From the NCBI GenBank assembly GCA_021824915.1, contig JAKAJP010000022.1:23832-87831 (forward strand): a stretch of 64,000 bases of DNA. The letters are read 5' to 3'. Every line of letters begins with the position of its first letter. The stretch's first letter is position 1. This document shows, piece after piece, positions 1 through 64,000 of this stretch. Under the pieces are notes generated by a model. That model was not told the DNA's origin, did no database searches, and saw only the letters and a program-made list of their open reading frames with translations. A program made the translations under genes and the position numbers. This DNA comes from a bacterium (GTDB taxonomy: Bacteria > Patescibacteriota > Microgenomatia > UBA8517).

Positions 1-755
1 CGGGTCATGTAGGGGGAATTGGTTACAACCAAGAAAAACCTGCAGAGCTATTTGACGACAACATCTTAATGGGAGTGAATGCCATAAAAGCTGCCAAAAC
101 CCGGGGAGTTAAAAAATTCGTAGCCATCGGAACAATTTGCGCCTATCCAAAATACACAAAGGTGCCCTTCAAGGAAAGTGACCTTTGGAACGGTTACCCG
201 GAAGAAACAAACGCACCCTACGGTCTCGCTAAAAAGATGCTTTTAGTGCAATCGCAGGCATACAGAAAGCAATATAACTTCAACTCAATTTTTTTACTCC
301 CCGTAAATCTCTATGGACCCGGGGATAATTTTAACGAAAAATCCTCGCATGTAATCCCAGCCCTAATAAAAAAATTCATGGACGCAAAAGATAAAAATTC
401 AAAGCAGGTCGTAATTTGGGGATCCGGAAAACCGACACGGGAATTTTTATATGTTGAGGACGCCGCCTCCGCAATATTAAAGGCAGCAGAAAAATATGAC
501 AAATCAGATCCTGTTAACATTGGATCCGGCGCTGAAATATCCATTAGTCGGCTTGCAAAATCGATTGCTAAAATATTGAAATTTGACGGTAATATTGTTT
601 TTGATAAATCGAAACCCGACGGACAACCACGAAGAAGACTGAATGTAACCCGTGCCAAGAAAGAATTTGGATTTACAGCAAAAGTGAAATTTCAAATCGG
701 ATTAAAAAAAACAATTAGTTGGTATTCAAACCAGAGGCAAAAGGGTTCTATCTAA
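1..755 (+). CDS. fcl: GDP-L-fucose synthase (GDP-4-keto-6-deoxy-D-mannose 3,5-epimerase/4-reductase), 5'-truncated at window edge
   Basis: Reading frame is open from base 3 (…[27 protein letters not shown]…), so the listed ATG at 69 is internal. SDR-type YxxxK (PYGLAKK), '[12 protein letters not shown]' and '[18 protein letters not shown]' match GDP-fucose synthase. Gmd is encoded at 13.3 kb. Confidence 0.78.
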
Positions 756-1793
756 AATTGGATTAATATCAAATTCTTTTGCCAGTACAATTGCATTTTT
801 TCGGGTATTAATCCAAAATTTTCGATCCATCAAAAACTTTTCGATCGCGTTGAGTAGTTCCTTCTCATTTAGTTTAATCACCACCCCTGCGTTATATTTT
901 TTAATATCAATACTTGTCGCAACCGCGTCTGTAATTATTACGGGAGTTCCACAAGCAAGATATTCCCTGGTTTTCTTCGAATCCCCATAATAAACCCATG
1001 AGTATTCCTTTGAATACGAGTAAATAGAGAGCGCCAAAATTGATTTTGAGACTTCCATTAAGAGTTTGGCATTAGAAAGCTGACCGACCAGTAAAACGGA
1101 TTTATCAATACCCAAACTATTAATTCTCGCCTTTAATTTATTCTGATAACCGCCCGTTCCAATAATTGTAAGTTTTACTCTCGGGAATTTGGAATGGACC
1201 TTCTTAAACACTGAAAGAACCAGATCCAGCGAACGGCTATGCGTCAAGCCCGAAACCATAACAATTTTGTTCCTGTCTATTTTTCCGGCATTCTGTCTTG
1301 GACATTTTCCGAAAGATGGAGAGTTTGGGACTAACTTAATTTTTGAGAAACTAATTCCCTGTGCCTTCCGCAAGTCGACAATACGGCTTGAGACATTCCA
1401 AACCTCATCTGAGTTTGTGGCGGCAAATCTGTCAATCCAGAGATAAATAGAATTAATTAATTTGTTTTCAAACCTTGTCGGGGTATAGTCAACGCAATAA
1501 AAGACGGTCTTTTTCAAAAACCCTATTTTTCTAAGAATAACGCCGGCAAAAGCGTTTAACGGGTCTATACCAATAAAAATATCAACTTTATATAAAATTG
1601 TCTTAAATAAGGTCGTTAAAGTTTCGGAAAATGACTTTATCGGCAGAGGCAGAATTGATGTAAGAGGGTATTTTATTACTTGGTGTTTTATTTTCTTTTC
1701 TACCAAATAATTCTCCACTACATCAATCGGACCGTATACCGGACCTGAACTAGTGGAATAAACGTGGCTTACAAGTAAGACCTTACTAGACAT
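726..1793 (-). CDS. glycosyltransferase family 4 (GT-B, retaining)
   Basis: C-terminal GT4 nucleotide-sugar binding region (…[15 protein letters not shown]…[13 protein letters not shown]…). Start moved to MSSKVLL (Met7) to reduce overlap with the upstream gene. Confidence 0.7.
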
Positions 1794-2664
1794 TTTGGGT
1801 AATATGCTCAAAAACTTTCTTAATCCCGCTCTTTATATCCGTCGCGGGCAGCCAACCAAACTCGCTTTTTAATTTTTCAACCGAATAAATAACTTCTCCG
1901 ACTTTAGATTCATCAGAATTCTGAAAATCAATCTCACACTTTCTTCCACTAATCTTTTCTAAAATTGAAACGAGGTCTAAAATCGAATAATATTTACCAG
2001 TTCCAACGTTATAAATGCCATCAAAATTACCCTCCAAAGAACGTTTAATTAACTCGGAGACGTCATCAACAAAAACCAAATCCCGCTTTTGTTTTCCATC
2101 TCCGTAAATTGTCACTCCTCCCGATTTAATAAAATCGTGGCATAAATTATATATAACCCCCTTTGTATTCCCGGGTCCGTAAATACTGAAAAACCTGAAA
2201 ATTGTAGCTACACCACCATCCTCTTTTGACCACTTCCTAATCATTATCTCGGCTTCAAATTTACTTTCACCATACTCAGTATCCGGATGACAAGTATCAG
2301 TCTCCCTAAACATCTTTCCATTCGAGTCACCATATACTGCTATCGTCGAAGCAAAAATAAATTTTTTAATTTTAGCCGACCTGCAGGCACTAATTAAATT
2401 GGCGGTGGTTTTGATATTTCCCTCCTCCATCGAAGTTTTCCCCGACAAAACCTGACCCGCCAGATGAATAACAACGTCAACGCCATCCAAAAAATTATCA
2501 AGACCTTCCCCATTTAACAAATTTCCTCTAACCACCTTAATTCCATCGGGATAATTATGTCCGTCGAAATCCAATACCACCAGCTGGTGTTTCTCTGTAA
2601 TTAAGCGAGACAGAAGATGACTTCCAATAAAACCCGAGGCGCCGGTTATGGCTACTTTCATCAT
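1786..2664 (-). CDS. NAD-dependent sugar epimerase/dehydratase (extended SDR)
   Basis: N-terminal Rossmann 'MKVAITGASGFIGSHL', catalytic 'YGESKFEAE' (YxxxK), about 290 aa. Confidence 0.75.
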   Translation of the reverse strand: MMKVAITGASGFIGSHLLSRLITEKHQLVVLDFDGHNYPDGIKVVRGNLLNGEGLDNFLDGVDVVIHLAGQVLSGKTSMEEGNIKTTANLISACRSAKIKKFIFASTIAVYGDSNGKMFRETDTCHPDTEYGESKFEAEIMIRKWSKEDGGVATIFRFFSIYGPGNTKGVIYNLCHDFIKSGGVTIYGDGKQKRDLVFVDDVSELIKRSLEGNFDGIYNVGTGKYYSILDLVSILEKISGRKCEIDFQNSDESKVGEVIYSVEKLKSEFGWLPATDIKSGIKKVFEHITQNV

Positions 2665-2679
2665 AATAAGGCCAACATG

Positions 2680-4526: not shown

Positions 4527-4527
4527 T

Positions 4528-6456
4528 TTATGGACTTGTCGCACAAGCTATGCCATGAACAAACAGGGTGTCGACCTTTGTACCCAATATGGCGGTATTG
4601 CCACATTGGCTATTATTTCTAACAAACTGAACAGTGTAATTCAGATCACTAAGCTTAGGATCCTCCCAAGTTTTTAGCTTCAACACTTGGAATTTATTTT
4701 CATCGTATTTGGACAAAGTTGCCCTAAATGTATCTTCATAATACCACCAAGGATACCAAGCAAATTCGTAAATTTGGACATTTTTTGGTTGTATGCCCGT
4801 TTTAACAAGTTTTTCCGCAGTCACCCAAACTACTCCATTGGTAGTATGAAAAATCTTGGTATTAATAAACGAAATAAATAAAACAAACAACACCGCCAAG
4901 ACTGATAAAAATTTATTTAATCCAAACTTTTTTGCAAAAAGTGCCAAGCCAATAAAAACAAATGGCACAAAAGAAATGACGTATTCAAACCAAACATATG
5001 GCAAAGTAATTGTAATTAAAAAAATGGAAATAAAATTAATGAAAAGAAAAAGTTCGATCGACCTTTTTAAATCAAACTTCCTAATTCTCACAAAAAAGCC
5101 GGCGCTTACAACTAATGCCACTAATATTGCAAGTGTTACTAAAAAAAGCCACGATCCGGTAACAATCTCATTAATTGAGTACTTAGGCGAATCGTTAAGA
5201 TAAATCTTGTAAAAATAAACTGAGAAATATGCAATATCGAGAACTACTGCGCCAACATAAAAATAGATGGGCATACGGGGCTTTAGATAAAAATATTTCT
5301 TCCAAAAACTCCTACCCAAACTCAATAACATGATTGAGGCAAACGGAATTGACAGGAGCACTGACCTGTCCCAAAGTATTCTATACCAAATCGCATCATG
5401 CCCACCCCAGAAATTTATAAAACTGAAAATTTCAATCGGGAAAAAAGCACCTTCAAATTTCGGAAAAATCATTTTTGAATACGGAGGAAGATAAAAAACA
5501 AAGGCAATAAGCCCGGCAACCAAAATGAAAAAGACTACGTTCATAAACTTAAACGATTTTTTGATGTGATCTAACTTTAACTTGTAAATCAAAAATGCCG
5601 GCCAGATAAGCCCAACAACCTCCGCAAAGTAAATTCCTATTCTATTAAAAGTTTCTGCATAATACCTTGATACCATACCAACTTTTTGAAGGCTCTGCGG
5701 CCATATCAAATTCTTAAGTATATAAAGAGTTCCTTTATCCCAGGAGAATATCTGAGCCAAAGTTTTATTTCCATCTAAACTTAACCAATACGAATAGGTC
5801 AAAATTGTGACAATGGGAATTGCTAATGACCAGATGATATATTTCAACAATCGCTTAAAATTTTTATCATTGGCGGCCTTGAATACAAATATTATTAGTA
5901 TTGATGGAACAATAATTATCGCAGTCTGACGAACCAAGAAAGAGAAGCTCAAAAAAACGCTTCCTATCAACAACTTACTTAGTTCGTTTTTCTCAAAACC
6001 ACAAATATAGAAATATAGTGAAATCATAAATAGAGAAATAAACGGAATATCTGTCATAAAACTGTAGGCAAATAGAAGGTTCCAAGGAAATGCAAAATAA
6101 AGAATTGAAAAAACGGTAGATTCAAACCTTCCAACATTCAGCCTCCTTAAAATTCCATAAAAGGCAAGTATTCCAAAATAAAAAATCGTTACTGTTGAAA
6201 TTGTTAAAGCCTTGAATGAAAAACCGAAGATTTTAGAAAAAAGTGTCCCCCAATAAGCTTGGAAAATTAAAGTTGCAGTCGACCATTCACTGATCTTCAA
6301 ATACCCGTCAACAACAAGATGTTTAACGGTTTGAGAATAGGCAAAATCATCAAGGAGTGCTTTTCCGTAAATTGGGTTCATCAAAATAAACACACCCCAA
6401 TAAACAACTGAGATAATAATTACACCAAGCGATATCCGCCTCAACATCTTCTTCAT
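4528..6456 (-). CDS. GT-C fold membrane glycosyltransferase (ArnT/PMT-like, GT39/GT83 family), 642 aa
   Basis: More than 10 predicted TM helices. First periplasmic loop carries the acidic motif 'LLDDFAYSQ' characteristic of ArnT/PMT-type GT-C enzymes. C-terminal soluble domain of about 150 aa. Confidence 0.6.
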   Translation of the reverse strand: MKKMLRRISLGVIIISVVYWGVFILMNPIYGKALLDDFAYSQTVKHLVVDGYLKISEWSTATLIFQAYWGTLFSKIFGFSFKALTISTVTIFYFGILAFYGILRRLNVGRFESTVFSILYFAFPWNLLFAYSFMTDIPFISLFMISLYFYICGFEKNELSKLLIGSVFLSFSFLVRQTAIIIVPSILIIFVFKAANDKNFKRLLKYIIWSLAIPIVTILTYSYWLSLDGNKTLAQIFSWDKGTLYILKNLIWPQSLQKVGMVSRYYAETFNRIGIYFAEVVGLIWPAFLIYKLKLDHIKKSFKFMNVVFFILVAGLIAFVFYLPPYSKMIFPKFEGAFFPIEIFSFINFWGGHDAIWYRILWDRSVLLSIPFASIMLLSLGRSFWKKYFYLKPRMPIYFYVGAVVLDIAYFSVYFYKIYLNDSPKYSINEIVTGSWLFLVTLAILVALVVSAGFFVRIRKFDLKRSIELFLFINFISIFLITITLPYVWFEYVISFVPFVFIGLALFAKKFGLNKFLSVLAVLFVLFISFINTKIFHTTNGVVWVTAEKLVKTGIQPKNVQIYEFAWYPWWYYEDTFRATLSKYDENKFQVLKLKTWEDPKLSDLNYTVQFVRNNSQCGNTAILGTKVDTLFVHGIACATSP

Positions 6457-8576: not shown

Positions 8577-9204
8577 TTATACTAAGCACATCAGACCGCT
8601 TTGTCTTTTCCCGAAATCCCATCTTGGATAAGGTTTTATAAAAAATTTCTTCCGTGGACAACCAATGTTTCATAAATCTAATTTCTCCCAAATAGGATTT
8701 TCCGCGCCTTTTAAGAGAAGGCATAAAATTAGCAACGAAAGACGTTGATATGAAATCATAAAAAGACCTAAGGATTGAGCGGTGAGGCTCAATAAAACAA
8801 AGTTTTCCACCATTCTTTAACACTCTTTTAATCTCTTCTATCGCACGATCATACTTCATAAAATGGTGAAAAACAGAATCAACAAAAACCACATCAAAAT
8901 AATTTGCCTTAAAGGGGAGTTTTTCGGCAGAGGCCAAATAAAATTTATTGTCTCTATTTTCTTTCCTCGCAATTGAAAGAAGCTCGGGTGAAATATCAAT
9001 CCCGATCACATCTCTTATACCCATCTTTCTTAATACTTTTACGTTAAGGCCATCACCACAACCCAAGTCCAAAACCCTATCTTTTCTACCAATCTCCAAA
9101 AATGAAATCCGCCTTTTTCTTTCATTGAGATTTCTCCTCGTTTTAATGCAAGCTTCTTCCCAATGGTGAGATTGGCCCCATTTATTAACGTTAGTATTAG
9201 CCAT
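8548..9204 (-). CDS. class I SAM-dependent methyltransferase
   Basis: Motif I 'VLDLGCGDGLN' and motif II 'DVVFVDSVFHH'. Start placed at MANTNV (Met22) to avoid a 59-bp overlap with the upstream aminotransferase. Confidence 0.7.
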   Translation of the reverse strand: MANTNVNKWGQSHHWEEACIKTRRNLNERKRRISFLEIGRKDRVLDLGCGDGLNVKVLRKMGIRDVIGIDISPELLSIARKENRDNKFYLASAEKLPFKANYFDVVFVDSVFHHFMKYDRAIEEIKRVLKNGGKLCFIEPHRSILRSFYDFISTSFVANFMPSLKRRGKSYLGEIRFMKHWLSTEEIFYKTLSKMGFREKTKRSDVLSIIATYEVSKK

Positions 9205-9208
9205 GAAG

Positions 9209-10729: not shown

Positions 10730-10779
10730 TAATGCAATAACTTTCCAAATTTGTCAATCAAATTGAGATCAGCTAGAAT
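10730..10779. promoter_or_regulatory. short divergent intergenic region; possible sigma70-like promoter for the minus-strand operon
   Basis: Minus-strand reading contains TTGACA (complement of 10752-10757), a 17-bp spacer, CATTAT, then about 10 nt to the ATG of the aminotransferase gene. The plus-strand TTGTCA(10751)-N17-TAGAAT(10774) abuts the ATG of the GT4 gene. Confidence 0.25.
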
Positions 10780-12772: not shown

Positions 12773-12774
12773 TG

Positions 12775-13308: not shown

Positions 13309-13329
13309 ACTTACGAAAAACATTATACT

Positions 13330-14355: not shown

Positions 14356-14356
14356 A

Positions 14357-16416: not shown

Positions 16417-16423
16417 CATAAAC

Positions 16424-32363: not shown

Positions 32364-32370
32364 AGCTAAA

Positions 32371-37698: not shown

Positions 37699-37699
37699 A

Positions 37700-45797: not shown

Positions 45798-45800
45798 AGA

Positions 45801-54676: not shown

Positions 54677-54707
54677 GAAAATTATAGCACTCCAAATTTC
54701 GAAAACG

Positions 54708-55563: not shown

Positions 55564-56313
55564 TTAGACTTTATATTTTCCTTGAAGTGCATTAATGCGA
55601 ACACGGAGGAGGTCGCGAAGGCCTTCCCAAGAGTCGCGGATTGCGTTTATTCTTTCACTTTCTTTATGGTTCCAAGTAACGGGAACTTCTGCAACTTTAT
55701 ATTTTAGTTTTCTGGCCAAATACAAAACTTCCAAATCAAATCCCGCAGTAACTCCGGCCCCTTTTCCTTGTCCTTTCTCGGAAAAAACTTTCATCCTCTT
55801 AAAAATTTCTCTCGAGGCTTCATTCCTAAAAGCCTTAAATCCACACTGGGTGTCTTTATAGGGAAGGCGCAAAATTATTGTTCTTAAAAAAGCAAAGCCA
55901 TAAGCCATGAGTTTTCGTAAAAGAGGTGCTCCTTTTCTACCGGAACGGGATCCGATTACAATATCATACCCTTCTTCAAATTTAGGCAAGAATTTCTCCA
56001 CCTGATCGATCGGAGTTGCTTGATCTGTATCCGTAAAAAGAATAACATCCCCCTTGGCTCTAAGCATTCCGGCAATAACCGTTCCACCTTTACCTCTATG
56101 TGGTTCTTTCAAAACAAAAAAGTTTTTGTGATTTTTGGAAAAATCGTCGGCAATTTTTGCGGTCGCATCACTACTTCCGTCATCAACGAACAAAACTTCC
56201 CAAGAGTATTTTTGTTTCTTCAAATAGTCACTAACCAAATCCAACACTCCAGTCCGAAGATTGTACTCTTCGTTGTACGCAGGAATTACTACCGATAAAT
56301 AAACATTTTTCAT
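55564..56313 (-). CDS. GT2 polyprenol-phosphate sugar synthase, DPM1-like (soluble type)
   Basis: 'LSVVIPAYNEEYNL', 'VLFVDDGSSDAT', 'TDTDQATP', 'DTQCGFKAFR'; no C-terminal TM. ATGA overlap with the downstream GT-C gene. Confidence 0.65.
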   Translation of the reverse strand: MKNVYLSVVIPAYNEEYNLRTGVLDLVSDYLKKQKYSWEVLFVDDGSSDATAKIADDFSKNHKNFFVLKEPHRGKGGTVIAGMLRAKGDVILFTDTDQATPIDQVEKFLPKFEEGYDIVIGSRSGRKGAPLLRKLMAYGFAFLRTIILRLPYKDTQCGFKAFRNEASREIFKRMKVFSEKGQGKGAGVTAGFDLEVLYLARKLKYKVAEVPVTWNHKESERINAIRDSWEGLRDLLRVRINALQGKYKV

Positions 56314-57803
56314 TGCTTTGTAGTAAACAAAATCATAGGATCGGTTAAGTTTGTATCCTCACCCTGACAACTTTTACTTATCCGGTCTTCAGTATAGCGT
56401 TTATAATCCGGCAAAACCAAACCCAAAACCCCGAAATTCACATCCGTTCTTCCAACTTTAGATAGTGGAAAAGCAACCGTATAAACTGGAATATCTTTTT
56501 GTGGGTGTTTGAGTTTAAGTTTATCTAACCAAATTAGATACCTGTAACCCAGATCATATCCTGGATCCGTTATGTAAGAAATTGAAACACAATCGAAACG
56601 CCTTTCCAAAGAATCCTTTTTAATAAAATCAATTAGGGCTTTCCTTTCTACATATCCATTCCCGTTTTCTGCATAGGTAAAAAGCCTATAAAAACTCACT
56701 CCCAGGAAAAGCGCCAGAGCAACAAATACTAACCACTTTAGCCCTTTGAGATTGTAAATGAAGTTAATTGAAAGTGCAGTTGAGGTCAACCAAACAATAT
56801 TTAACCCGTTAAAGTAATATTCGGAAAGGGAAATTTTGCTAAAAGTAAAAAACAAAACGTAAGCCAGAGTCCACACACCAATTACAGCTCCAATTTTCCA
56901 ATATCCTCTATTTTTAAGGAACGCAAAAAAAGTTACAAATGTAAGAACAAAAAACGGCAGAGTATCAGGAACCAGTGGTGTCTTTCTTATAAAAATCCGG
57001 GTTGTGTTTTTATAGACAATATCAGCAACTTTCCAAAATTGATCGGAAAAGGTGTTATTAAGACCGGCGTTGTTTAGATTTTTTCCTTCAATCGCCAAGG
57101 TTATTGCCCGACTCTGCTGAAATCCGTGCCGTGTCTCAAAAAATAAAAAGGGTAAAGCAACAATAAAAAAAACAACCAAACCAGTTAAAACCCACTTAAA
57201 ATTAATTTTTCTCTTTGACAACACAATAGCAACAGGGATCGCAACTGAAGGAATTGCCAGGGCAAAGTTTATATTCCAAATAAACCCAATAAGTCCAAAG
57301 GAAAGAATGTATCCCAGCTTTTTATTTTTAATAATCAAATAAAGGGAATAAAGATACCAAATACCCCACAACGAAACCGGCATTGTTGGAACAACCTCCT
57401 GATTGTTAAGCACGAAGTAATAAGACACGGAATACAAAAAAGCCCCGATCAAACCGATTTTATTATCAAAAATTCTCGAAAAAACAAAATAAATACTTAC
57501 TATTGTCAAAACCGACAAGAATGTTACAAGCGCAATCCCGCCGATTGGATTCATCCCAAAAATTAAATAGAAAGGAACAATAAGGTAGTAAAACACAGAA
57601 CCAATAAAAACTCCGGGAACGCTTGTTTCTTGTCCAATAAGCCTCAAATGACCGCTTAGAACGTCACGTACGAACCAACCAATGAGATCTTGATCATGCG
57701 AGTATGTAAAGCGAGGAACAACTCTATAAAGACGCAGGAAAAGGCCAATGGCAATTATCAAAATCAGAATCCAGTTTTTCTTGAAAAATTTTATAAGCTT
57801 CAT
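56310..57803 (-). CDS. GT-C fold membrane glycosyltransferase, ArnT-like 'DQxRD' subfamily
   Basis: 'FTYSHDQDLIGWFVRDV', about 12 TM helices, C-terminal soluble domain. ATGA overlaps on both sides. Confidence 0.5.
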   Translation of the reverse strand: MKLIKFFKKNWILILIIAIGLFLRLYRVVPRFTYSHDQDLIGWFVRDVLSGHLRLIGQETSVPGVFIGSVFYYLIVPFYLIFGMNPIGGIALVTFLSVLTIVSIYFVFSRIFDNKIGLIGAFLYSVSYYFVLNNQEVVPTMPVSLWGIWYLYSLYLIIKNKKLGYILSFGLIGFIWNINFALAIPSVAIPVAIVLSKRKINFKWVLTGLVVFFIVALPFLFFETRHGFQQSRAITLAIEGKNLNNAGLNNTFSDQFWKVADIVYKNTTRIFIRKTPLVPDTLPFFVLTFVTFFAFLKNRGYWKIGAVIGVWTLAYVLFFTFSKISLSEYYFNGLNIVWLTSTALSINFIYNLKGLKWLVFVALALFLGVSFYRLFTYAENGNGYVERKALIDFIKKDSLERRFDCVSISYITDPGYDLGYRYLIWLDKLKLKHPQKDIPVYTVAFPLSKVGRTDVNFGVLGLVLPDYKRYTEDRISKSCQGEDTNLTDPMILFTTKQ

Positions 57804-59338
57804 TTAATTCTGATCCTTTCCTGAACAGTTATACCACCAAATTTTTCTTCCTTGATCACGTGCCCAATCCCTTTTTGTCTATCGAGCCAGGCGTTCAAAC
57901 GCTCCGGATGCGGCGGGTCAACTTCATATAAGGTATATAAGAGAACGGCCCGATTCGAATCGGGAAGTTTATGATATTTATAAGTCCCCAGCCATTGAAA
58001 TAAATAGTTGTACGCATAGGGGATAACCGGAGGTACATAAACATCCACATTAAAACTTCTTTCACCTGCATCTTTATATATCCAGTCTATCGCCTGTTTT
58101 TGATCGAAAAATAAAATTGATTCGGATGAGCTCGTTGTTTTTAATCTTGGCAAAATAATCGACAGGTTGGCAAAAAGAAAAAGGTAAAGAAAATAAAGAA
58201 CAAATAATTTACCGATCTTAAACCTCCAGATATCACCCAAGACAAGCGAGAGAAGAAGAACAAAGATTAGATAATACCCAGTCATATAATAATCGTATAA
58301 AACACCTTCGTTGCCCTGGAAAAAATAAAGTCCGATAACAGGAGAAATCAAAAGAAGAATTAAAATAACGTAGCCTTTGTTTTTGATATATTTGGGTAAG
58401 TTAATTAAAAACCAAAGCGCCGCTATTCCCAAAACAATCTTTTCTAAAGTTCCGCGGAAGTCAAAAATCAGTTTGGTAAAAACGTTGTAATAAAAATTAG
58501 TCCGGTCTAAAAATAACGATTTGATGGATACCGAAAAACTCTTTTCGGTGACAAATGTTTGGTAAAAATTGTTGGCCAAAATATGCCCGTGTTTGAAATC
58601 AAAAAATACAAGCGGAGCGAAAGTTACTGCAAAAAGAAAAATTGATAAAATAAGATTTTTAAGATCCGGTAAATTTTTTCTTTGCCAAATTGCAAAGGTT
58701 ATGACGGCGGGTACATAAAAAAGTTCTCCTGAACTTCCGAAATTAAACAGCGAAAGACCGATACAAAAAGAAATTACCGGCCAACCCCATTTCTTTCCTT
58801 CGGTTACCTTTAACATCGACCAAACCAAGATCATCGAAAGAACAAGCATTGGGGTAGGGTTACTTAACCACTTTGAACCGGTAACAATATAAAAAGAAAA
58901 AGAGGCGATAGTGGCTGCAATTATCCCCGCAATCCTTCCTTGAATTTTCATGCCAAGGTAGTAAATAAACCCAACAGAAATTATTGATGTAAGAATTAAA
59001 AAGATATCAGGATAGATAGGACTTCCTCTACCAAGAAAGTAAAACGGCGCAATTAAGTAGTAATAATAAGGTCCTCTAAAAATTCCGGCTAAACCAGTGG
59101 TCGGTCCTATCAAAAACCATTTGTGGTTATTCAAAAAATCCCAGATGATGAGAGCGTCCCGCCCCTGATCATAATAAAAACCCAGAAGATCGTTTATTCT
59201 ATAAACACGGATGGCGAATGCGGCAGTTAAAATTAGCGCTAAAAGAGAATAAACAAATGGACGGTTTTTAATCTCTTTAAGAAGTTTTTTGAGCATACTT
59301 TCTGGCGGTTGCCAAAACTTTCTTGGTAGCCTCACCAA
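57800..59338 (-). CDS. GT-C fold membrane glycosyltransferase, ArnT-like 'DQxRD' subfamily
   Basis: 'GFYYDQGRDALIIWD', 'GPYYYYLIAPFY', C-terminal 'GGITVQERIRIK' (shared with 39259..40791). Confidence 0.5.
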   Translation of the reverse strand: MVRLPRKFWQPPESMLKKLLKEIKNRPFVYSLLALILTAAFAIRVYRINDLLGFYYDQGRDALIIWDFLNNHKWFLIGPTTGLAGIFRGPYYYYLIAPFYFLGRGSPIYPDIFLILTSIISVGFIYYLGMKIQGRIAGIIAATIASFSFYIVTGSKWLSNPTPMLVLSMILVWSMLKVTEGKKWGWPVISFCIGLSLFNFGSSGELFYVPAVITFAIWQRKNLPDLKNLILSIFLFAVTFAPLVFFDFKHGHILANNFYQTFVTEKSFSVSIKSLFLDRTNFYYNVFTKLIFDFRGTLEKIVLGIAALWFLINLPKYIKNKGYVILILLLISPVIGLYFFQGNEGVLYDYYMTGYYLIFVLLLSLVLGDIWRFKIGKLFVLYFLYLFLFANLSIILPRLKTTSSSESILFFDQKQAIDWIYKDAGERSFNVDVYVPPVIPYAYNYLFQWLGTYKYHKLPDSNRAVLLYTLYEVDPPHPERLNAWLDRQKGIGHVIKEEKFGGITVQERIRIK

Positions 59339-60269
59339 ACGGAATACCCCTCAATACCGCAGCTCCGGCCTGTTTATGTCCGCCACCACCCAACTCATTA
59401 GCAATCTTTGAGATATCAAAACCCATCTTGGCTCTAAAACTTACATTCAAGAAATTCTTCTTTTCTTCAACCATTATCATCCCAAAATCCGCACCCTGAA
59501 CCGAAGCCGCGTAAAGTCCGGCCGCCATACTTTTAATACCAAAGGATCCTGGATATTGCGAAATCTCTTCAAATGGGACAGCCGACCAAACAAACCTATT
59601 CTCTTTATCAATTTGCATATTCTTAGTTATTTCCGTCATCGCTTTAACCATATCAAAATTAAGATTTCTAAAAATATTGGAGATAATTTTATTTTTATCA
59701 GCGCCCAGCTCCATCAATTTCACAAAAATTTTGGCAGTATCCACATCCGCACTCGAGTGTTCTAAGCAAGATGTATCATAAATAATTCCCGTCAGGAGAT
59801 CCTCAGCAGTCTCCCCATCTACGAGAACTCCCCAATCGTCAAAAATTTTATATAAAATTTCAGATGTTGAACTCCTTTCCTCATCAACCAAATTTATTAC
59901 TCCAAACTTTTCATTCGTAAAATGATGATCAATATTAATTTTTTTAATCGATGGCTTTTTTTCTTTTCCAAATCCAAGGACTTGACTCCACTCTGCTGAA
60001 TCAAGAATTATAAACAAATCGTACGGCGAGAAATCAAAATTATCATAGTCAATTTTCTTAACTACATCTGATGATTTTAAGAACTTTGAATCACCCGAAA
60101 CATTATCCGGACAAACTATTTCAACCTCCTTGTCCATTCCCAACAATATTTTTCTCATGGCAAGAGCTGAACCCACACTATCCGGGTCCGGACTTCTATG
60201 GCAATTAAGTAAAATCCTTTTTGCCTTTTTAATTTCCTCTAATACTTTTGGTGATAAATCGTAATTCAT
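59277..60269 (-). CDS. nrnA: DHH-family phosphoesterase, NrnA-like (oligoribonuclease / pAp phosphatase)
   Basis: DHH motifs 'HRSPDPDSVGSA', 'DHH' (NIDHHFTN) and DHHA1 'GGGGH'; 330 aa. Confidence 0.75.
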   Translation of the reverse strand: MNYDLSPKVLEEIKKAKRILLNCHRSPDPDSVGSALAMRKILLGMDKEVEIVCPDNVSGDSKFLKSSDVVKKIDYDNFDFSPYDLFIILDSAEWSQVLGFGKEKKPSIKKINIDHHFTNEKFGVINLVDEERSSTSEILYKIFDDWGVLVDGETAEDLLTGIIYDTSCLEHSSADVDTAKIFVKLMELGADKNKIISNIFRNLNFDMVKAMTEITKNMQIDKENRFVWSAVPFEEISQYPGSFGIKSMAAGLYAASVQGADFGMIMVEEKKNFLNVSFRAKMGFDISKIANELGGGGHKQAGAAVLRGIPFGEATKKVLATARKYAQKTS

Positions 60270-61813
60270 TTTGTATGTATCAATTTATAAACAGTTACCC
60301 CATCAACTATCCAACTATTCTCTATTTTACTCCATCCGAAGTTGGCAACCTCTGCCTGAGGTGCGTTAACCGGATTACATTTTGATTGTTCTTTTTCACA
60401 AACAACAAAAAGTTGGCTTGTAATAGTACTCGGGACTTGTGCATCAATATCGATAACTTTGTCACCGTTCTTAATTAGAAAATATTTATAACCATCCGGA
60501 TAATTTCTTTCGGCAATTACAGCCACATTAAACTCGCGGCCGCCCGCTTCCTGTTCTATTTTCCCAGCCACATCTTCTGCACGCTTTAGCTGATAATTTG
60601 GTGGGTATTTCAGAGGGCTATTATAGACATTTACACCGATGAGACCCGCAAAAACAACTCCCAAGAAAGGTATTACCCTTTTATATGATGAAAGAAATTG
60701 AAAACATGCACCCAGAAGAATAAACATGGCCGCAAAAATAAATCCGAAATAATGGTCATAAATTTGTTGTTTATATAACCCTAAACCGATAAGCGCAAAT
60801 GCGAGCCATAAAAACAAGAGATAGTAATTTGTATTTTGCAAATAACGCTTTCGGAAGATAAATAAAATACCAACAAAGACGGCCAAAATCACCGAAACGA
60901 CAACGCCAACAACGACATTCTTTGCGCTTATTAAGCTGTCGCTTATCTGAGCAAAAATAACTGGGATAACCGGAATTGCGTTCCATGGTTTTATTGAAAC
61001 TGTGGCCTGTCTCTCTGTAAAAAATTTATAAATTGCTCTGGAATTTATCCAATTATGTCTGATATCAAAAAATAACAGTGGCGACATTAGAAGTAAAAAT
61101 ATAATCGAAGCAAAAATAGAATAACGAATCAGGTTAATTCTTTGTTGCCTTTCTTTCCAAACTCTTAAAAGAACAAACAACCAAAATATAAAAATTGTTG
61201 GAACAAGTAAAAGGCCAAGGTAGTGGGATTGTAATACAAAGGCAAACGCAAAGCCGGTGACCAAAAGCCACTTAAATTGGTTAAACTTCCAAACGCGCCA
61301 GACAGAATAAATGGTTAAAAGCGAAAAGAAAGGCATGATGTTCGGGTTCCATGAACTTCTGGAATAAACAATTATCGTCGGAGCTACCGCGTAGAGAGCG
61401 GCGGATGTAACTCCCGCCACTTTACCAAACCATTCACGCCCCACCCACCAAACAAAAACTATTGTAATAATTCCCAAGATAGCAATTTCAATAGCAGGAC
61501 CGACTGGCGAAAAATTGGCGACTAAAAGGGCGGGAGCCATAAAATAGTAATAAAGCGGGCCTAAATACATATTCCCTATTGAAGTCCCCGGGCCAATTAG
61601 TGGGGGGTGACCTTCCACCAAAAGACGCCTGACAGTTATTACATCACGACCTTCATCTCCCAAGAATGTCATATAGGCATCAATTTTGTAAAGCCGACAA
61701 AAAGCCCCGACAACTAGAATTGCCAGAAGAACATAAAACTCAACCGGATTTTTCTTAATCCAATTCTTAATACTTAACATATAATTCTTCATGTTTATTT
61801 TAATTTTCGCCAA
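60266..61813 (-). CDS. GT-C fold membrane glycosyltransferase, ArnT-like 'DQxRD' subfamily
   Basis: 'FLGDEGRDVITVRRL', 'GPLYYYFMAPAL', about 12 TM helices, C-terminal soluble domain with two Cys. Confidence 0.5.
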   Translation of the reverse strand: MAKIKINMKNYMLSIKNWIKKNPVEFYVLLAILVVGAFCRLYKIDAYMTFLGDEGRDVITVRRLLVEGHPPLIGPGTSIGNMYLGPLYYYFMAPALLVANFSPVGPAIEIAILGIITIVFVWWVGREWFGKVAGVTSAALYAVAPTIIVYSRSSWNPNIMPFFSLLTIYSVWRVWKFNQFKWLLVTGFAFAFVLQSHYLGLLLVPTIFIFWLFVLLRVWKERQQRINLIRYSIFASIIFLLLMSPLLFFDIRHNWINSRAIYKFFTERQATVSIKPWNAIPVIPVIFAQISDSLISAKNVVVGVVVSVILAVFVGILFIFRKRYLQNTNYYLLFLWLAFALIGLGLYKQQIYDHYFGFIFAAMFILLGACFQFLSSYKRVIPFLGVVFAGLIGVNVYNSPLKYPPNYQLKRAEDVAGKIEQEAGGREFNVAVIAERNYPDGYKYFLIKNGDKVIDIDAQVPSTITSQLFVVCEKEQSKCNPVNAPQAEVANFGWSKIENSWIVDGVTVYKLIHTK

Positions 61814-62499
61814 AGCCGGAATAGATCAATAAAACTCTTTATGATCACATTGATATTTCTTCCGGTTCCGGCTCCTTTTGTTCGGGGATAATGCGTAACA
61901 GGAACCTCGGCAAACCTAAATCCTTTTTTCTTTGCTTTAATCAAAAGCTCACTGCTAATGAATGCTCCCCGCTGGCTTTCAAGCTTTGGAATTTTATCTA
62001 TTACCTCTTTTCTAATCAGCTTAAAACCGCAATCAATATCGTGGACTTTCAATCCAAAAAGAATAAACACCGCAAGCTCCCAAAGGCGGCTGGTTAATAT
62101 CTTGAATTTGGAAACCCGTCGTTTTTTATAATAACCAATCACCAAATCCGCCCCAGCCTCTTCCTGCTTCTCAAAAAATTTATTAATTTCTGAAAAATCG
62201 AATTGTCCGTCGGAATCAGTAAAGGCAATCCAATTATATTTTGAATTATAAAAACCATCTGCGAGGGTTGCCCCATAGCCCAAATTTGTTTCATGACTTA
62301 TAACCTTAATCCGCGGGTCACTTTTGGATAAATCTATGGCAATTTTTTGAGTCGAGTCACTACTCCCATCGTTAACTATTATTAACTCCCACTTTTCCGT
62401 CATTTTTTGCAGGATATCCTTTGTATTCAAGACAACTTTACTAATTATTCCTTCTTCGTTGTACGTTGGTAAAAAGACGGAAAGTTCCTTAATTTTCAT
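61795..62499 (-). CDS. GT2 polyprenol-phosphate sugar synthase, DPM1-like (soluble type)
   Basis: 'LSVFLPTYNEEGII', 'LIIVNDGSSDST', 'TDSDGQF', 'DIDCGFKLIR'. Confidence 0.65.
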   Translation of the reverse strand: MKIKELSVFLPTYNEEGIISKVVLNTKDILQKMTEKWELIIVNDGSSDSTQKIAIDLSKSDPRIKVISHETNLGYGATLADGFYNSKYNWIAFTDSDGQFDFSEINKFFEKQEEAGADLVIGYYKKRRVSKFKILTSRLWELAVFILFGLKVHDIDCGFKLIRKEVIDKIPKLESQRGAFISSELLIKAKKKGFRFAEVPVTHYPRTKGAGTGRNINVIIKSFIDLFRLWRKLK

Positions 62500-62550
62500 G
62501 ATTCAACCTCAAGTCTAGCATACGCATAACCTCCATGCTAATATTGGAAT

Positions 62551-63711
62551 ATGGCTGGAAAAATAAAAAATCTGGTTGCGGTAGCCCTTATATCACTTGT
62601 TCCCACCATCCTAATCTGGCTGCCGTTCTTCCTACGGCTACCTTCGTTTTGGAACATTCCACTACCCACCAACGGGCTTGCCACAATCGTTTCCAATTAC
62701 GACGGCCCACTATACTTAGTCGCCGCAAAAACGCTTTACAATAAAAGTGCAATTGAGGCAAATTTCCAATTCCCGCTCCCGGCCGAATACTACACGGCCC
62801 ACTTCCCCCTTTTTCCCCTTCTAATAAGACTGGTCGGTGTGGTCACAAACTATCCTTATGCAATGCTTATTATCACACTTCTCTCCTCCATCCTCGCCAT
62901 CCACTTCTTCTATAAATTAATAGGAAAATACGTTGACAAAAAAGACGCTTTTTTTCTGACAATACTCTTTTCAGTCTTCCCGGCAAGGTGGCTTATTGTC
63001 CGATCGGTTGGTGGAGCCGACCCATTGTTTGTTGCGTCAATCATCGCTTCAATCTATTACTTCAAAGAAAAAAGATATTTATATGCAGGGCTTTGGGGAG
63101 CGGTTGCCCAGTTAACAAAATCTCCAGGAATACTTTTATTCATCTCCTATTTCATCTTCCTACTAATTCCCTTTATTCGTAGAAAAATCGCAGTGACGGG
63201 AAATAAATTACTTGAGAACCTGGATCTAAAAAGAACTTATCCCCTACTTTTGATACCACTCGCCCTTCTTGCAGTATTTGGATTCTATAAAATCACACAA
63301 GGAAGCTTTCTTGCCTACTTCCATTCAGGGGACAACATTCATCTTTTCTTCCCTCCTTTCCAGATTTTTAACTATTCGGCTCCATGGGTCGGCACTTTCT
63401 GGCTCGAAGAAGTCATCTTTATTTATCTAATAGGAGCGGTCGGTGTCTATCGGCTTTTTGCAAAACAGGAATATGAACTAGCAACTTTCTCGGCCGTGTT
63501 TTTCTTCTTAACCCTATTCATAGCACATAGAGACTTAATGCGATATTCCCTACCGTTATTTCCATTCCTCTACGTAGCGTTCGCTGATGTTCTAATCAAA
63601 AAAGAATTCAAGCTCGCGCTCATTATAATCGTTATTCCTATATATCTTTTTTCTTTAAGCTTTATTTCCCAAAACGTGATGCCAATAAGCAATTGGGCGC
63701 CGTTTTTATAA
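62551..63711 (+). CDS. GT-C fold membrane glycosyltransferase, PIG-V/mannosyltransferase-2-like (paralog of 20300..21448)
   Basis: 'YDGPLYLVAAKTLY' and 'YTAHFPLFPLLIRLVGVV' parallel 'FDGEHYIALAREGY…YYFFPLFPLLIRFF' in 20300..21448; about 10 TM helices. Confidence 0.5.
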   Translation: MAGKIKNLVAVALISLVPTILIWLPFFLRLPSFWNIPLPTNGLATIVSNYDGPLYLVAAKTLYNKSAIEANFQFPLPAEYYTAHFPLFPLLIRLVGVVTNYPYAMLIITLLSSILAIHFFYKLIGKYVDKKDAFFLTILFSVFPARWLIVRSVGGADPLFVASIIASIYYFKEKRYLYAGLWGAVAQLTKSPGILLFISYFIFLLIPFIRRKIAVTGNKLLENLDLKRTYPLLLIPLALLAVFGFYKITQGSFLAYFHSGDNIHLFFPPFQIFNYSAPWVGTFWLEEVIFIYLIGAVGVYRLFAKQEYELATFSAVFFFLTLFIAHRDLMRYSLPLFPFLYVAFADVLIKKEFKLALIIIVIPIYLFSLSFISQNVMPISNWAPFL

Positions 63712-63712
63712 C

Positions 63713-64000
63713 TTAGTAGCTATCTACAAACCTTACCCTGTCGATATAAATAAGTTTTTTGGAGTCAATAACTTCAACCGTCTCATCATAAGTTGCAAAC
63801 ACATTTTTCAATTTTCTAAATTCTTCCTCTTTCATCCAGATATTCTCCCCCTCCAAAACTTTAGCTTTTAATTTTCCACCGACACCGTCCACCCGAAAAA
63901 CCCAGAAATATTTATCCTCAAGTAATTTTCCCTTCTTATGAAAATGGTGATAATGAACAATCCCTTTGAGCGTAAAGTCTCCTGTTAATCCAGTTTCCTC
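63713..64000 (-). CDS. hypothetical protein, 3' end only (gene continues beyond window)
   Basis: Manual translation of the minus strand from 64000 gives a 95-codon stop-free frame (…GIVHYHHFHKKGKLLEDKYFWVFRVDGVGGKLKAKVLEGENIWMKEEEF…VDSY*) ending at TAA 63713-63715. It is absent from the ORF track only because the start lies outside the window. Confidence 0.4.
   Translation of the reverse strand, partial: EETGLTGDFTLKGIVHYHHFHKKGKLLEDKYFWVFRVDGVGGKLKAKVLEGENIWMKEEEFRKLKNVFATYDETVEVIDSKKLIYIDRVRFVDSY

Follow-up and report, generated by a model that had tools for sequence, protein, structure and literature searches.

Twenty putative membrane glycosyltransferases of the GT-C type, whose genes take up 32.6 kb (51%) of a window of 64,000 nt (the whole stretch of DNA analyzed here), together with soluble glycosyltransferases and flippases probably constitute a supercluster for a cell-envelope glycan, which would be assembled in the cytoplasm and then on the outer face of the membrane and would be a conserved surface glycan of Microgenomates. 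About half of the window, from approximately 29 to 62 kb, retains its gene content and order as a syntenic block among Woesebacteria, Blackburnbacteria, Amesbacteria and further Microgenomates, so that the island of the original prediction is not peculiar to one genome; as the prediction had also stated, the system seems not to have been characterized, and we found no published description in the literature.

Origin and Integrity of the Window

The window belongs to the genome of a Microgenomates (CPR/Patescibacteria) bacterium. Homologs of its proteins carry the names Woesebacteria, Blackburnbacteria, Amesbacteria and Microgenomates, and the chromosomes of three relatives deposited whole are 0.81–0.92 Mb in size, in agreement with the small-genome CPR organism initially proposed. 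All of positions 1–64000, every join included, are spanned by contigs of at least five independent samples with 99.4–100% identity. As independent assemblies span its full length, the window is not chimeric and the assembly is sound. Among the same-strand junctions between window genes, 39 of 45 overlap or are at most 10 bp apart, consistent with long operons. The conserved block runs beyond the left window end, and glycan genes continue beyond the right one.

Identification of GT-C Proteins

All 20 flagged coordinates correspond to real ORFs of 382–807 aa, with 5–14 hydrophobic segments per protein in a crude hydropathy scan. Fifteen proteins exceed the curated Pfam cut-offs of GT-C families, three have matches under the cut-offs, and two have none. 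By HMM or paralogy 19 of the 20 are assigned to GT-C families, and the remaining one (46700; genes are named by their first coordinate) is placed there by predicted structure, so that both the anticipated number of about 20 and, in Pfam and BLASTP searches, most family labels proved right. All GT-C genes except 62551 are on the minus strand.

Thirteen proteins reach the PMT_2 gathering score of 26.1 bits. These include 4528..6456 (642 aa, DD at residue 36; PMT_2 38.8 bits), 6453..8576 (707 aa, DE at residue 38; PMT_2 38.2, PMT 26.9 bits), 51607..53190 (DE at 37–38, PMT_2/PMT; PMT_2 39.6 bits), with a possible C-terminal TIG-like domain (TIG 17.2 bits, under the cut-off), the short 62551..63711 (+, 386 aa; 33.6 bits), divergent from the GT2 gene 61795, and 35405..36976, a distant member of family A (30.2 bits; DE at residue 65 if the long ORF is counted, the called gene being 494 aa). 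The tandem family A further comprises 24339..25988 (DE at 34; PMT 45.2, PMT_2 44.9 bits), which shares about 30% identity with the other members, 25990..27642 (DE at 33; PMT_2 57.6 bits), 27642..29279 (DE at 34; PMT_2 33.2, PMT 28.5 bits), and also 33654..35408 (DE at 42–43; PMT_2 28.7 bits), the member best conserved in relatives, with orthologs at about 700 bits. 25990 resembles Agl23 (TIGR03663, E 1e-13, under the cut-off) and weakly matches ArnT (5ezm). Family B is formed by 39259..40791 (DQARD at 41–45; borderline, PMT_2 26.5 bits), 56310..57803 (HDQD; 36.6 bits), 57800..59338 (DQGRD; 33.5 bits) and 60266..61813 (DEGRD; PMT_2 52.7, PMT 27.4 bits).

Two more proteins match PMT_2 under the cut-off. 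30708..32462 (21.2 bits, DE at residue 64 if the long ORF is counted) is a clear paralog of 25990 from family A (BLASTP E 1e-60 to 1e-65); gene callers give 551 aa, so its true start is probably near 32363. The short 20300..21448 (382 aa, 20.9 bits) is a clear paralog of 62551 (BLASTP E 1e-7). Both 20300 and 62551 had been labeled PIG-V-like, which is not supported: PMT_2 is matched, and PIG-V is not, even at E≤1.

The YfhO cut-off (28.5 bits) is exceeded by 40760..43183 (807 aa, 85.3 bits), as predicted, and by 49807..51534 (30.4 bits, DD at 40–41). The latter had been ascribed to PF10131 (PTPS_related), which it matches only under the cut-off (17.7 bits), as had 29261..30724, a YfhO/PF10131-like GT-C candidate lacking Pfam matches but paralogous to 49807 (38% identity, E 1e-98). 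Another candidate, 32371..33657 (428 aa), may be GT87/ALG/PIG-U-like, judging by weak HMM matches: GT87 scores 16.6 bits, under the cut-off, and in its family of 37 members Pfam ALG6_8 is matched by 10, PIG-U by 9, GT87 by 9 and ALG3 by 5. Homologs of 32371 bear the JGI name “Gpi18-like mannosyltransferase.”

DE follows directly after TM1 in 6453, 24339, 25990, 27642, 30708, 33654, 35405, 51607 and 60266, and DD follows TM1 in 4528 and 49807; thus, the acidic motif is present in all the genes for which a DE loop had been listed, as DD in the case of 4528. The proposed DQxRD subfamily is exact only in 39259 and 57800, with DEGRD in 60266 and HDQD in 56310. These motifs are retained in orthologs: DE in 12/12 for 33654 and in 53/53 ungapped sequences for 51607, DQxRD in 28/28 for 39259, DQGRD in 30/30 ungapped sequences for 57800, both D37 and D39 in 20/20 for 56310, and DD in 81–83 of 84 for 49807. 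The GT-C paralogs are old, as the highest identity between any two of them in the window is 38%; the C-terminal extracytoplasmic domains are not alike across paralog families.

Conservation of the Gene Block

Synteny was measured within 10 kb on either side of the 46700 ortholog, a scope that ends short of the 0–29 kb part of the window. The usual order in relatives is 60266-DHH-57800-56310-GT2-51607-49807-flippase-46700, followed by three GT2 genes, GT4, 40760, 39259, a methyltransferase, two GT2 genes and 33654. Individual GT-C orthologs score 400–990 bits (800–990 for 40760), and orthologs of 49807 and 51607 are found in 53 and 45 of 54 loci, respectively. The density of GT-C-like ORFs is 7.4 per 21.7 kb in relatives vs. 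0.31 per kb in the window. The DHH/DHHA1 phosphoesterase gene (59277..60269, –), located between two GT-C genes, also lies there in those relatives with a locus long enough to include it (e.g., L005, L006, L011, L034).

The core of the block is the conserved pair of the Wzx/MOP-type flippase 48321..49856 (–, Polysacc_synt_3 185.8 bits) and 46700..48361 (553 aa), whose gene has its first 41 nt within the flippase gene; in 66 of 75 loci, the gene directly preceding the 46700 ortholog encodes a flippase. By its predicted structure, 46700 is a GT-C of a new family without a Pfam model, and a Pfam search with it gave no match. The best 10 Foldseek matches are all oligosaccharyltransferase (OST) catalytic subunits, with TM-scores of about 0.5, and its C-terminal globular domain is like that of AglB. 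While the predicted fold is thus closest to STT3/AglB/PglB, the sequence motifs of OSTs are lacking: WWDxG is found in 0, DxD in 4 and TIXE/SVSE in 5 of 41 family sequences, Pfam STT3 is not matched by 46700, and the family profile retrieves no PDB sequence.

The same C-terminal domain is present in 16424..18280 (–), a membrane-anchored extracytoplasmic protein with a glycoside hydrolase/deacetylase-fold barrel and a beta domain; as 16424 is not a glycosyltransferase, the common domain is a portable module. Moreover, 46700 is probably coupled to 16424, since numerous other genomes encode them as one fusion protein: in the 46700 family, 38 of 150 cluster representatives carry the 16424 domain, and one protein (P0400) unites a 46700-type GT-C, the 16424 domain and a flippase. 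The fusions examined (1028–1134 aa) have an odd number of extra predicted TM segments, so the 16424 domain would sit outside the membrane.

Accompanying Genes

The helper genes include eleven GT2 (four ArnC/GtrB-like), five GT4, two Wzx-like flippases, three methyltransferases, and sugar-nucleotide enzymes (PseB/FnlA-like, Gmd, and DegT with a cupin). The GT4 and flippase counts coincide with the original prediction, which had about ten GT2 enzymes, three of them lipid-sugar synthases.

The four synthase-like GT2 enzymes (ArnC, PgfS, dolichyl-P-hexose transferase, PpgS-like) adjoin GT-C genes, and all score far under the NCBIfam equivalog cut-offs. 14357..15307 (–; ArnC/PgfS/GtrB-like, two predicted C-terminal TM segments) matches ArnC NF007986 over the full length with 181 bits, under the cut-off of 529, and is a candidate polyprenol-phosphate sugar synthase. 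18281..19054 (–), a PgfS/PpgS-like candidate polyprenol-P-sugar synthase, forms a three-gene module with the second Wzx/MOP-type flippase (19056..20312, –; Polysacc_synt_3 58.5 bits) and GT-C 20300. 55564..56313 (–; PgfS/ArnC/dolichyl-P-hexose transferase-like) overlaps the end of GT-C 56310 and is matched with 200 bits or more by a gene in 33 of 54 loci, and 61795..62499 (–; ArnC/PpgS-like) lies between GT-C 60266 and 62551.

A run of cytoplasmic glycosyltransferases identified by Pfam (43146..46697, –) is situated directly downstream of 46700: GT2 45801–46697, GT2 44859–45797, GT2 44149–44874 and GT4 43146–44198, with orthologs in 53, 47, 44 and 52 of 54 loci, respectively. In the segment 36850..39252 (–, Pfam), GT2 36850–37782, GT2 37700–38599 and methyltransferase 38596–39252 have orthologs in 30, 41 and 29 of 54. 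The segment 726..4544 (–) encodes GT4 726–1811, an epimerase/reductase 1786–2664, a PseB/FnlA-like UDP-GlcNAc 4,6-dehydratase 2680–3696 and GT2 3714–4544. Within 8548..16479 are methyltransferases 8548 and 12014, a fusion of a DegT aminotransferase with an FdtA-like cupin (9209), GT4 10780 (+), a DUF5667 protein (12775), Gmd (13330) and GT4 15298. The segment 21441..24337 contains GT4 21441–22649 (–), GT2 23465–24337 (–) and an embedded housekeeping gene for ornithine/aspartate carbamoyltransferase (22571–23479, +).

A Pfam search of the whole window detected no priming phosphoglycosyltransferase, LCP ligase, Wzy_C-type ligase/polymerase, chain-length regulator or ABC exporter, nor any transporter domains except the two flippases; a GtrA-type small flippase is likewise absent from the window. 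Along with the low synthase scores, these absences count against the scheme proposed below, whose initial and final steps have no assigned gene.

Possible Function

In the proposed scheme, soluble GT2 and GT4 enzymes would build one or two polyprenol-linked oligosaccharides at the cytoplasmic face, using nucleotide sugars from the local PseB/FnlA-like dehydratase, Gmd and the fused aminotransferase-ketoisomerase, with part of the sugars modified by methyltransferases. The two Wzx-type flippases would then carry the intermediates to the outer face, where about 20 GT-C enzymes, each apparently an old paralog for which relatives have separate conserved orthologs, may extend, branch or transfer the glycan, as suggested by family membership and invariant catalytic motifs; 46700 and flippase 48321 would act together with the hydrolase/deacetylase-fold protein 16424. 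Donors for the GT-C enzymes would be polyprenol-P-sugars from the four ArnC/GtrB/PpgS-like GT2 proteins. This part of the original prediction is tentatively retained on the basis of these sub-cut-off matches, but perhaps not for every step: oligosaccharyltransferases take polyprenol-PP-oligosaccharide donors, and, as 46700, the most conserved member, resembles them, not all steps need use monosaccharide ones.

Instead of building one multi-step glycan, the 20 enzymes could, from their sequences, represent several independent two- or three-component systems (polyprenol-P-sugar synthase, flippase and GT-C), each adding a single sugar to a different acceptor. These might be surface proteins, for instance of the S-layer, pilins or substrates of sortase (as for PMT, TMTC and PgfM), or teichoic-acid-like polymers (as for YfhO/CsbB and GtrABC). 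The PMT_2 and YfhO families indeed contain single-sugar glycosylases of proteins and teichoic acid, GT2 and GT-C genes form pairs or triplets (18281-19056-20300; 55564-56310; 61795 with 60266 and 62551), and the weak similarity to PgfS, PgfM2 and Agl23 and the differing C-terminal domains of the paralog families point the same way. Still, we consider it rather unlikely, as 20 GT-C proteins face only four candidate synthases, 16 cytoplasmic GT2/GT4 enzymes with two Wzx-type flippases suggest oligosaccharide intermediates, and the gene order with its overlaps is tight group-wide, unlike that of Gtr-type decoration modules, which are variable and often mobile.

It is similarly doubtful that 46700, as a divergent member of the STT3/AglB/PglB group, genuinely transfers oligosaccharides en bloc. 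In that case, the conserved core, made up of the flippase, 46700, three GT2 and one GT4, would serve protein glycosylation in the manner of pgl/agl loci, while remodeling of the lipid-linked glycan, known from the eukaryotic ER, would fall to the remaining GT-C enzymes. The Foldseek matches and the pgl/agl-like context, conserved in 44–54 of 54 loci, agree with that, but the TM-scores, the near-absence of OST motifs, the failed STT3 and PDB sequence matches and the portability of the C-terminal domain argue against it. Highly improbable is that most of the polytopic proteins are transporters or Wzy-type polymerases/ligases, or that the window is a chimera: two proteins without Pfam matches and three under the cut-offs would leave room for the former, yet 15 exceed curated GT-C cut-offs, the others are tied to them by paralogy, matches of family members or structure, and neither Wzy_C domains nor, apart from the two flippases, transporter domains were found. 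Both outcomes had been named as refuting the original prediction; the proteins are instead assigned to glycosyltransferase families, and coverage at no less than 99.4% identity extends over every join.

For the preferred scheme of a single envelope-glycan supercluster, the most likely product is a conserved surface heteroglycan, that is, a wall polysaccharide, a lipoglycan, or a glycan of surface or S-layer proteins. As relatives across the group retain the same gene block, it is probably an uncharacterized core surface glycan of these bacteria.

Gene content and integrity of the cluster

Fifty-two ORFs of at least 150 aa, not nested in larger ones, have been identified in the window, 48 of them on the minus strand, and the GC content is even across it (0.36–0.41). 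Neighbouring genes on the same strand meet at 45 junctions, and in 39 of these they overlap or are separated by no more than 10 bp, which suggests long operons. Genes encoding the 20 polytopic proteins attributed to the GT-C superfamily (named here, like all other ORFs, by their left coordinate) account for 51% of the window (32.6 kb). A tRNA scan of the window yielded no tRNA genes.

The GT-C genes are accompanied by 11 GT2 and five GT4 glycosyltransferase genes, two genes for Wzx/MOP flippases (48321 and 19056) and three for methyltransferases. Four GT2 genes are similar to ArnC/PgfS/PpgS, all below the NCBIfam cut-offs, with the ArnC match being full-length. Sugar-nucleotide genes encode a PseB/FnlA-like UDP-GlcNAc 4,6-dehydratase, Gmd, epimerases, and a fusion of a DegT aminotransferase with an FdtA-like cupin; one further gene codes for a DHH phosphoesterase, and a carbamoyltransferase gene is embedded in the cluster. 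The fusion is a single ORF (9209–10729, minus strand) with a DegT/LegC/PseC-type sugar aminotransferase followed by a C-terminal FdtA-like (3,4-ketoisomerase) cupin, a composition suggestive of 3-amino-3,6-dideoxyhexose synthesis. The Polysacc_synt_C match on its cupin segment is probably spurious, given the absence of predicted TM segments in this part of the protein.

No Wzy_C, Bac_transf, Glycos_transf_4 (MraY/WecA) or Wzz domains were detected with Pfam in the 52 ORFs, and the window carries no priming phosphoglycosyltransferase, LCP- or Wzy_C-type ligase, chain-length regulator or ABC exporter. Measured against a Wzx/Wzy-dependent pathway, the two Wzx-like flippases are found in the window without Wzy, ligase, priming enzyme and chain-length regulator.

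The only sizeable gap in the block formed by genes other than glycosyltransferases is located at 53876–55490. Here, 53876–54676 and 54708–55490 (minus strand) comprise three small ORFs (84, 67, and 96 aa) and a 260-aa protein, all four called as genes in independent assemblies; the 96-aa ORF starts with a hydrophobic stretch, and the 260-aa protein has no Pfam match and contains a GHGGH motif resembling the nucleotidyltransferase HxGH. The adjacent ORF 53230–53883 (minus strand, 217 aa) has a faint Peptidase_C25 match (E 0.044) and a GHG ... SC pattern suggestive of a caspase/gingipain-like His-Cys dyad.

Exact copies of the window proteins were found in the NCBI assembly GCA_021843035.1, several ENA samples (ERZ272375xx), and four SRA runs assembled by Logan, with the same gene order in all these independent assemblies. 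BLASTN of the independent loci covers positions 1–64000 at 99.4–100% identity, every join included, which refutes a chimeric assembly, the artifact against which the original prediction had to be checked. The ornithine/aspartate carbamoyltransferase gene lying amid the glycosyltransferase array (22571–23479, plus strand) is present in every independent assembly of the organism.

The cluster runs past the left end of the window. An independent assembly of this flank (L097, 16457–21929) carries genes for a NodU/CmcH-type carbamoyltransferase, an epimerase, and methyltransferases. It also encodes two further polytopic proteins in which TM1 is followed by DE or DD; one of them is complete, and a Pfam scan of it gave no match. 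On the right (L091, 1–3800), glycan genes (a GT2-GtrA_DPMS_TM fusion, RmlC, RmlD) are interspersed with housekeeping ones (TrmD, NUDIX, zf-ChsH2). The GT2-GtrA_DPMS_TM fusion lies approximately 1.5 kb outside the right end, and no small hydrophobic GtrA-like ORF was found within the window.

Families of GT-C enzymes

The original prediction assigned about 20 proteins to GT-C families by motif reading. In a Pfam scan of all 52 window proteins, 13 of the 20 are at or above the gathering threshold of PMT_2 (PF13231): 4528, 6453, 24339, 25990, 27642, 33654, 35405, 39259, 51607, 56310, 57800, 60266, and 62551. The PMT_2/PMT families (PF13231/PF02366) correspond to ArnT and Pmt relatives of the GT39/GT83 type in CAZy. 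Two more proteins pass the YfhO (PF09586) cut-off of 28.5 bits, 40760 with 85.3 bits and 49807 with 30.4 bits. Another three join by paralogy: 20300 and 30708 have PMT_2 matches below the cut-off and are paralogs of passing members (Pfam, BLASTP), and 29261 is linked to YfhO solely via 49807 (38% identity). The family assignments thus largely hold, with two labels revised. PF10131 (PTPS_related) had been proposed for 49807 and 29261 (both on the minus strand); the former, at 17.7 bits, falls short of the 26.4-bit cut-off and passes YfhO instead, while the latter has no match, leaving YfhO paralogy as the relation of the pair. The PIG-V label (Mannosyl_trans2, PF04188) of 20300 and 62551 was dropped, as only PMT_2 is reported for them at E ≤ 1. 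In the same scan, 29261 and 46700 have no Pfam matches at all.

All-against-all BLASTP resolves several paralogous families. Family A includes a tandem group (30708, 24339, 25990, 27642, and 33654) with approximately 30% identity and E-values from 1e-50 to 1e-89, as well as the distant member 35405; family B consists of 39259, 56310, 57800, and 60266; and 20300 pairs with 62551. No paralogous pair exceeds 38% identity. Hence the paralogs are old, and recent tandem amplification is ruled out.

A crude hydropathy scan, which undercounts, yields 5–14 hydrophobic segments in each of the 20 proteins, in line with the polytopic, 8–13-TM architecture of the GT-C superfamily. A DE, DD, or DQxRD-type motif directly follows TM1 in 15 of the 20, at the places where it had been claimed, and corresponds to the acidic first extracytoplasmic loop characteristic of GT-C enzymes. 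Regular expressions found no such motif in 20300, 62551, 32371, and 40760, and matched only EFD, not of the DE/DD/DQxRD type, in 29261. A search of ten GT-C proteins against NCBIfam retrieved only sub-cut-off similarity, to Agl23 and PgfM2, and a single-sequence search of 25990 against PDB sequences only a weak match to ArnT (E 0.0085).

There is reasonable support for 32371 (32371–33657) as a GT-C member, with the family signals remaining below cut-offs. Its own GT87 match is weak (16.6 bits, cut-off 25). Among its 574 homologs, some of which are named “Gpi18-like mannosyltransferase” by JGI, 37 were compared with Pfam at E ≤ 0.01, giving ALG6_8 (10), PIG-U (9), GT87 (9), and ALG3 (5), with the best E-value of 1e-8. 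Neither a single-sequence search nor a family profile yielded anything meaningful among PDB sequences.

A GT-C family resembling oligosaccharyltransferases in predicted structure

The protein 46700 (46700–48361, minus strand) had been listed as an unclassified GT-C. It has more than 1300 homologs, of which the best 120 are 58–78% identical to it, all annotated as “hypothetical” and, where an organism is named, all from Patescibacteria. The AlphaFold model built from 41 homologs (pLDDT 86.7, pTM 0.88) has approximately 11 TM helices and a globular C-terminal domain. The top ten Foldseek hits of this model are all catalytic subunits of oligosaccharyltransferases (OSTs): human and canine STT3, yeast Stt3, AglB, and PglB. 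Judging by the model, 46700 is indeed a GT-C protein, with OSTs (GT66) as its nearest solved folds.

Still, we do not file it as an OST, because the motif test is negative: WWDxG of the C-terminal domain occurs in none of the 41 family members, DxD of the first external loop in four, and TIXE/SVSE of the fifth loop in five. Sequence methods provide no link either, as 46700 has no Pfam match at E ≤ 1, STT3 included, no NCBIfam match, and no match among PDB sequences with either a single-sequence search or a family profile. On the strength of sequence and model together, we treat it as a new GT-C family. Its invariant residues are H49, D50, H54, N78, Y79, H80, D84, E153, D272, R273, R314, E477, and D478, with H49-D50 being the acidic feature after TM1. 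A profile of the family retrieved 1545 members from 1.84 billion cluster representatives.

Among the window proteins compared, the C-terminal domain of 46700 is shared by 16424 alone and by no other GT-C. The latter (16424–18280, minus strand) is a membrane-anchored, DUF3863-like protein with a predicted hydrolase/deacetylase fold and a confident model (pLDDT 90.5); it has no Pfam match itself, DUF3863 being found on some of its homologs. Among the best 150 of the 1545 members of the 46700 family, 37 are fusions of approximately 850–1170 aa, with a counterpart of the first ~400 residues of 16424 ahead of the GT-C, and one 1639-aa chain, on a single 8.8-kb contig, comprises a flippase, the 16424 domain, and the GT-C (P0364, P0381, and the triple fusion P0400 are examples). 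No names on record were found for the fusion proteins. In the examined fusions of 1028–1134 aa, one or three extra TM segments are predicted to link the 16424 domain to the first TM segment of the GT-C. With such an odd number, the domain would lie outside the membrane, where the active site of the GT-C is also located. For the longest fusions, hydropathy is too coarse a measure to fix the TM count. Moreover, in two Blackburnbacteria-type loci a 16424 homolog is situated between the flippase and the GT-C. Given these fusions and this gene arrangement, a flipped substrate is most likely shared by the flippase, the new GT-C, and the processing domain at the outer face.

Conservation in relatives

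Scanning one genome per GTDB species with 46700 yielded 80 loci in records titled Woesebacteria, Blackburnbacteria, Amesbacteria, Shapirobacteria, or Microgenomates (in the NCBI taxonomy, Microgenomates group, Patescibacteria), the best relative's protein being 61–62% identical to 46700. Three of the relatives are deposited as whole chromosomes of 0.81–0.92 Mb. As to whether close genomes conserve the island, these loci keep the gene order 60266 – DHH phosphoesterase – 57800 – 56310 – GT2 55564 – 51607 – 49807 – flippase 48321 – 46700 – GT2 45801 – GT2 44859 – GT2 44149 – GT4 43146 – 40760 – 39259 – methyltransferase – GT2 – GT2 – 33654 (– 32371 – 30708).

Gene presence was counted in those 54 loci that are 21 kb or longer, requiring that the best window match of an ORF reach at least 200 bits, with the flank limited to 10 kb. 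All 54 have the flippase and 46700, which lie next to each other in 66 of the 75 loci overall. The four cytoplasmic glycosyltransferases downstream of 46700 are found in 44–53 loci, 49807 in 53, and 51607 in 45, so that the flippase and the GT2/GT4 genes adjoining 46700 are kept in 44–54 of the 54; outer genes were counted less often, at least partly due to the 10-kb limit. GT-C-like ORFs average 7.4 per 21.7 kb in the relatives' loci (0.34 per kb), compared to 0.31 per kb in the window.

Catalytic-loop motifs are invariant among orthologs in the seven families checked: DE in 12/12 and 53/53, DQxRD in 28/28 and 30/30, and DD in 81–83 of 84. This invariance points to purifying selection on active enzymes, each with a distinct retained role, and argues that the block is not a variable serotype island.

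Some details of the relatives' loci may be mentioned. The DHH/DHHA1 phosphoesterase gene (59277–60269, minus strand), situated between two GT-C genes, occupies the same place in relatives (e.g., L005, L006, L011, L034). At the place beside the flippase where the window has a single 49807-type gene (YfhO/PF10131-like), its other copy being at 29261, many relatives have three such ORFs in tandem (L012, L033, L036–L039, L042, L046, L053–L058, and others), so the copy number of this subfamily is lineage-variable. A Microgenomates-type block with 50–62% identity also occurs in many MAG records titled “uncultured Gammaproteobacteria bacterium” (binchicken, SRP co-assemblies; L008, L009, L011, L013, L014, and others); the taxonomy given in these titles is apparently a placeholder or an error.

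Comparison with known systems

Multi-GT-C assembly of a glycan at the outer face is, by analogy, of an already known kind. The closest functional analogues would be the mycobacterial lipomannan/lipoarabinomannan/arabinogalactan (LM/LAM/AG) pathways, the ER ALG/OST pathway with pgl/agl, and, for the flippase/16424/46700 trio, the ArnC-ArnD-ArnT logic. In mycobacteria, sequential outer-face GT-C enzymes (PimE, MptA-C, Emb, AftA-D) use polyprenol-P-sugar donors (Ppm1/DPPR), following a cytoplasmic GT-A/GT-B stage. The window resembles these pathways of Corynebacterineae in its many distinct GT-C enzymes, predicted cytoplasmic stage, and candidate polyprenol-P-sugar synthases. In contrast to mycobacteria, no orthology to Emb, Aft, or Mpt was detected in the window, whose families are PMT_2, YfhO, one GT87/ALG-like, and one new. 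The mycobacterial counterparts are scattered among several loci in a genome of 4.4 Mb, whereas the genes of the window form a single conserved supercluster in a genome of probably less than 1 Mb.

The order of cytoplasmic glycosyltransferases, flippase, outer GT-C, and possibly a final STT3-like transferase would be shared with eukaryotic ER N-glycan assembly and with the agl/pgl loci of archaea or Campylobacter, and the conserved core of flippase, OST-like GT-C, GT2, and GT4 is similar to that of pgl/agl clusters. Unlike ALG/OST/agl/pgl, 46700 lacks WWDYG, DxD, TIXE/SVSE, and the STT3 Pfam signal, and unlike pgl/agl, the window contains no priming enzyme.

Compared to the ArnC-ArnD-ArnE/F-ArnT pathway, which adds aminoarabinose to lipid A, 16424 is much closer to the uncharacterized protein 3lm3 than to ArnD; inspection by eye shows mostly acidic residues at its invariant positions, in place of the His-His-Asp triad of CE4; and its signal anchor and the fusion topology predict a location outside the membrane. 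As CPR bacteria are presumably monoderm, a lipid A acceptor is not to be expected.

Finally, the pairing of GtrB-like GT2 with GT-C enzymes, YfhO members included, is reminiscent of the three-component systems GtrA/GtrB/Gtr*, CsbB/GtcA/YfhO, and PgfS/PgfM1/PgfM2, of which the window holds the GtrB/ArnC-like GT2 and GT-C parts. Unlike in these systems, GT-C enzymes far outnumber the synthases, no GtrA-type protein is encoded within the window (the GT2-GtrA fusion being just outside), and the block is conserved, not variable or mobile.

Proposed pathway and implications

Alongside the observed family and fold membership, motif conservation, synteny, fusions, and assembly integrity, we propose the following scheme. 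Cytoplasmic GT2 and GT4 enzymes would build one or several polyprenol-linked oligosaccharides; the 6-deoxy, amino, and N-acetyl sugars for them would come from locally encoded enzymes and be methylated in part. Wzx-type flippases would then export the oligosaccharides. The four ArnC/PgfS/PpgS-like GT2 enzymes may supply polyprenol-P-sugars, and the subsequent outer-face reactions, namely elongation, branching, or transfer of the glycan, would fall to the GT-C enzymes.

The main rival is that the block combines independent systems, decorating separate proteins or polymers, instead of forming one pathway. We rate it lower, because only four candidate synthases would have to serve 20 GT-C enzymes, 16 cytoplasmic glycosyltransferases and two Wzx flippases are encoded alongside, and the operon structure is rigidly conserved. 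The scheme of a single pathway also has a bolder version, which, taken as a whole, we regard as tentative and rather improbable: Microgenomates would have an ER-like two-stage pathway acting on a lipid-linked glycan, with 46700 as the terminal enzyme, a new en-bloc transferase or polymerase physically coupled to the Wzx-type flippase and to an outer-face domain of hydrolase/deacetylase fold, with which it is fused in some cases. In that version, 46700 would be structurally related to STT3/AglB/PglB with a different acceptor-recognition apparatus, devoid of WWDYG; approximately 19 other GT-C enzymes would be ALG-like remodelers, and the product would be an envelope polymer or glycoprotein essential to these ultrasmall bacteria throughout the group.

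What is new here is multi-GT-C outer-face assembly in a tiny genome, encoded in one compact conserved supercluster and anchored by an unrecognized OST-like GT-C family. The original prediction considered the system uncharacterized, which agrees with the literature: the full texts searched contain nothing beyond generic remarks on many glycosyltransferases and an elaborate surface in CPR genomes (PMC5220378, PMC8080830, PMC4736985). A 2024 perspective on the CPR field does not discuss glycosylation.

CPR/Patescibacteria constitute a large share of bacterial diversity, with tiny genomes and an almost unstudied surface chemistry. One glycan system takes approximately 7% of a genome of probably ~0.9 Mb, as estimated from the whole-chromosome relatives, with genes for outer-face GT-C enzymes making up half of this share. 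As the block and its invariant catalytic motifs are kept across a major lineage, its product is probably a conserved, essential surface glycan. These bacteria presumably spend their lives on the surface of other cells, and the glycan could mediate host attachment or envelope integrity. The analysis names testable candidates, among them the OST-like GT-C family, which lacks a Pfam model and numbers about 1500 cluster representatives, and the proteins fused to it. Of the 35 families enriched in Microgenomates, most are hypothetical and 14 are predicted to be membrane proteins (PMC6744442); the system described here may give function to some of these membrane families.
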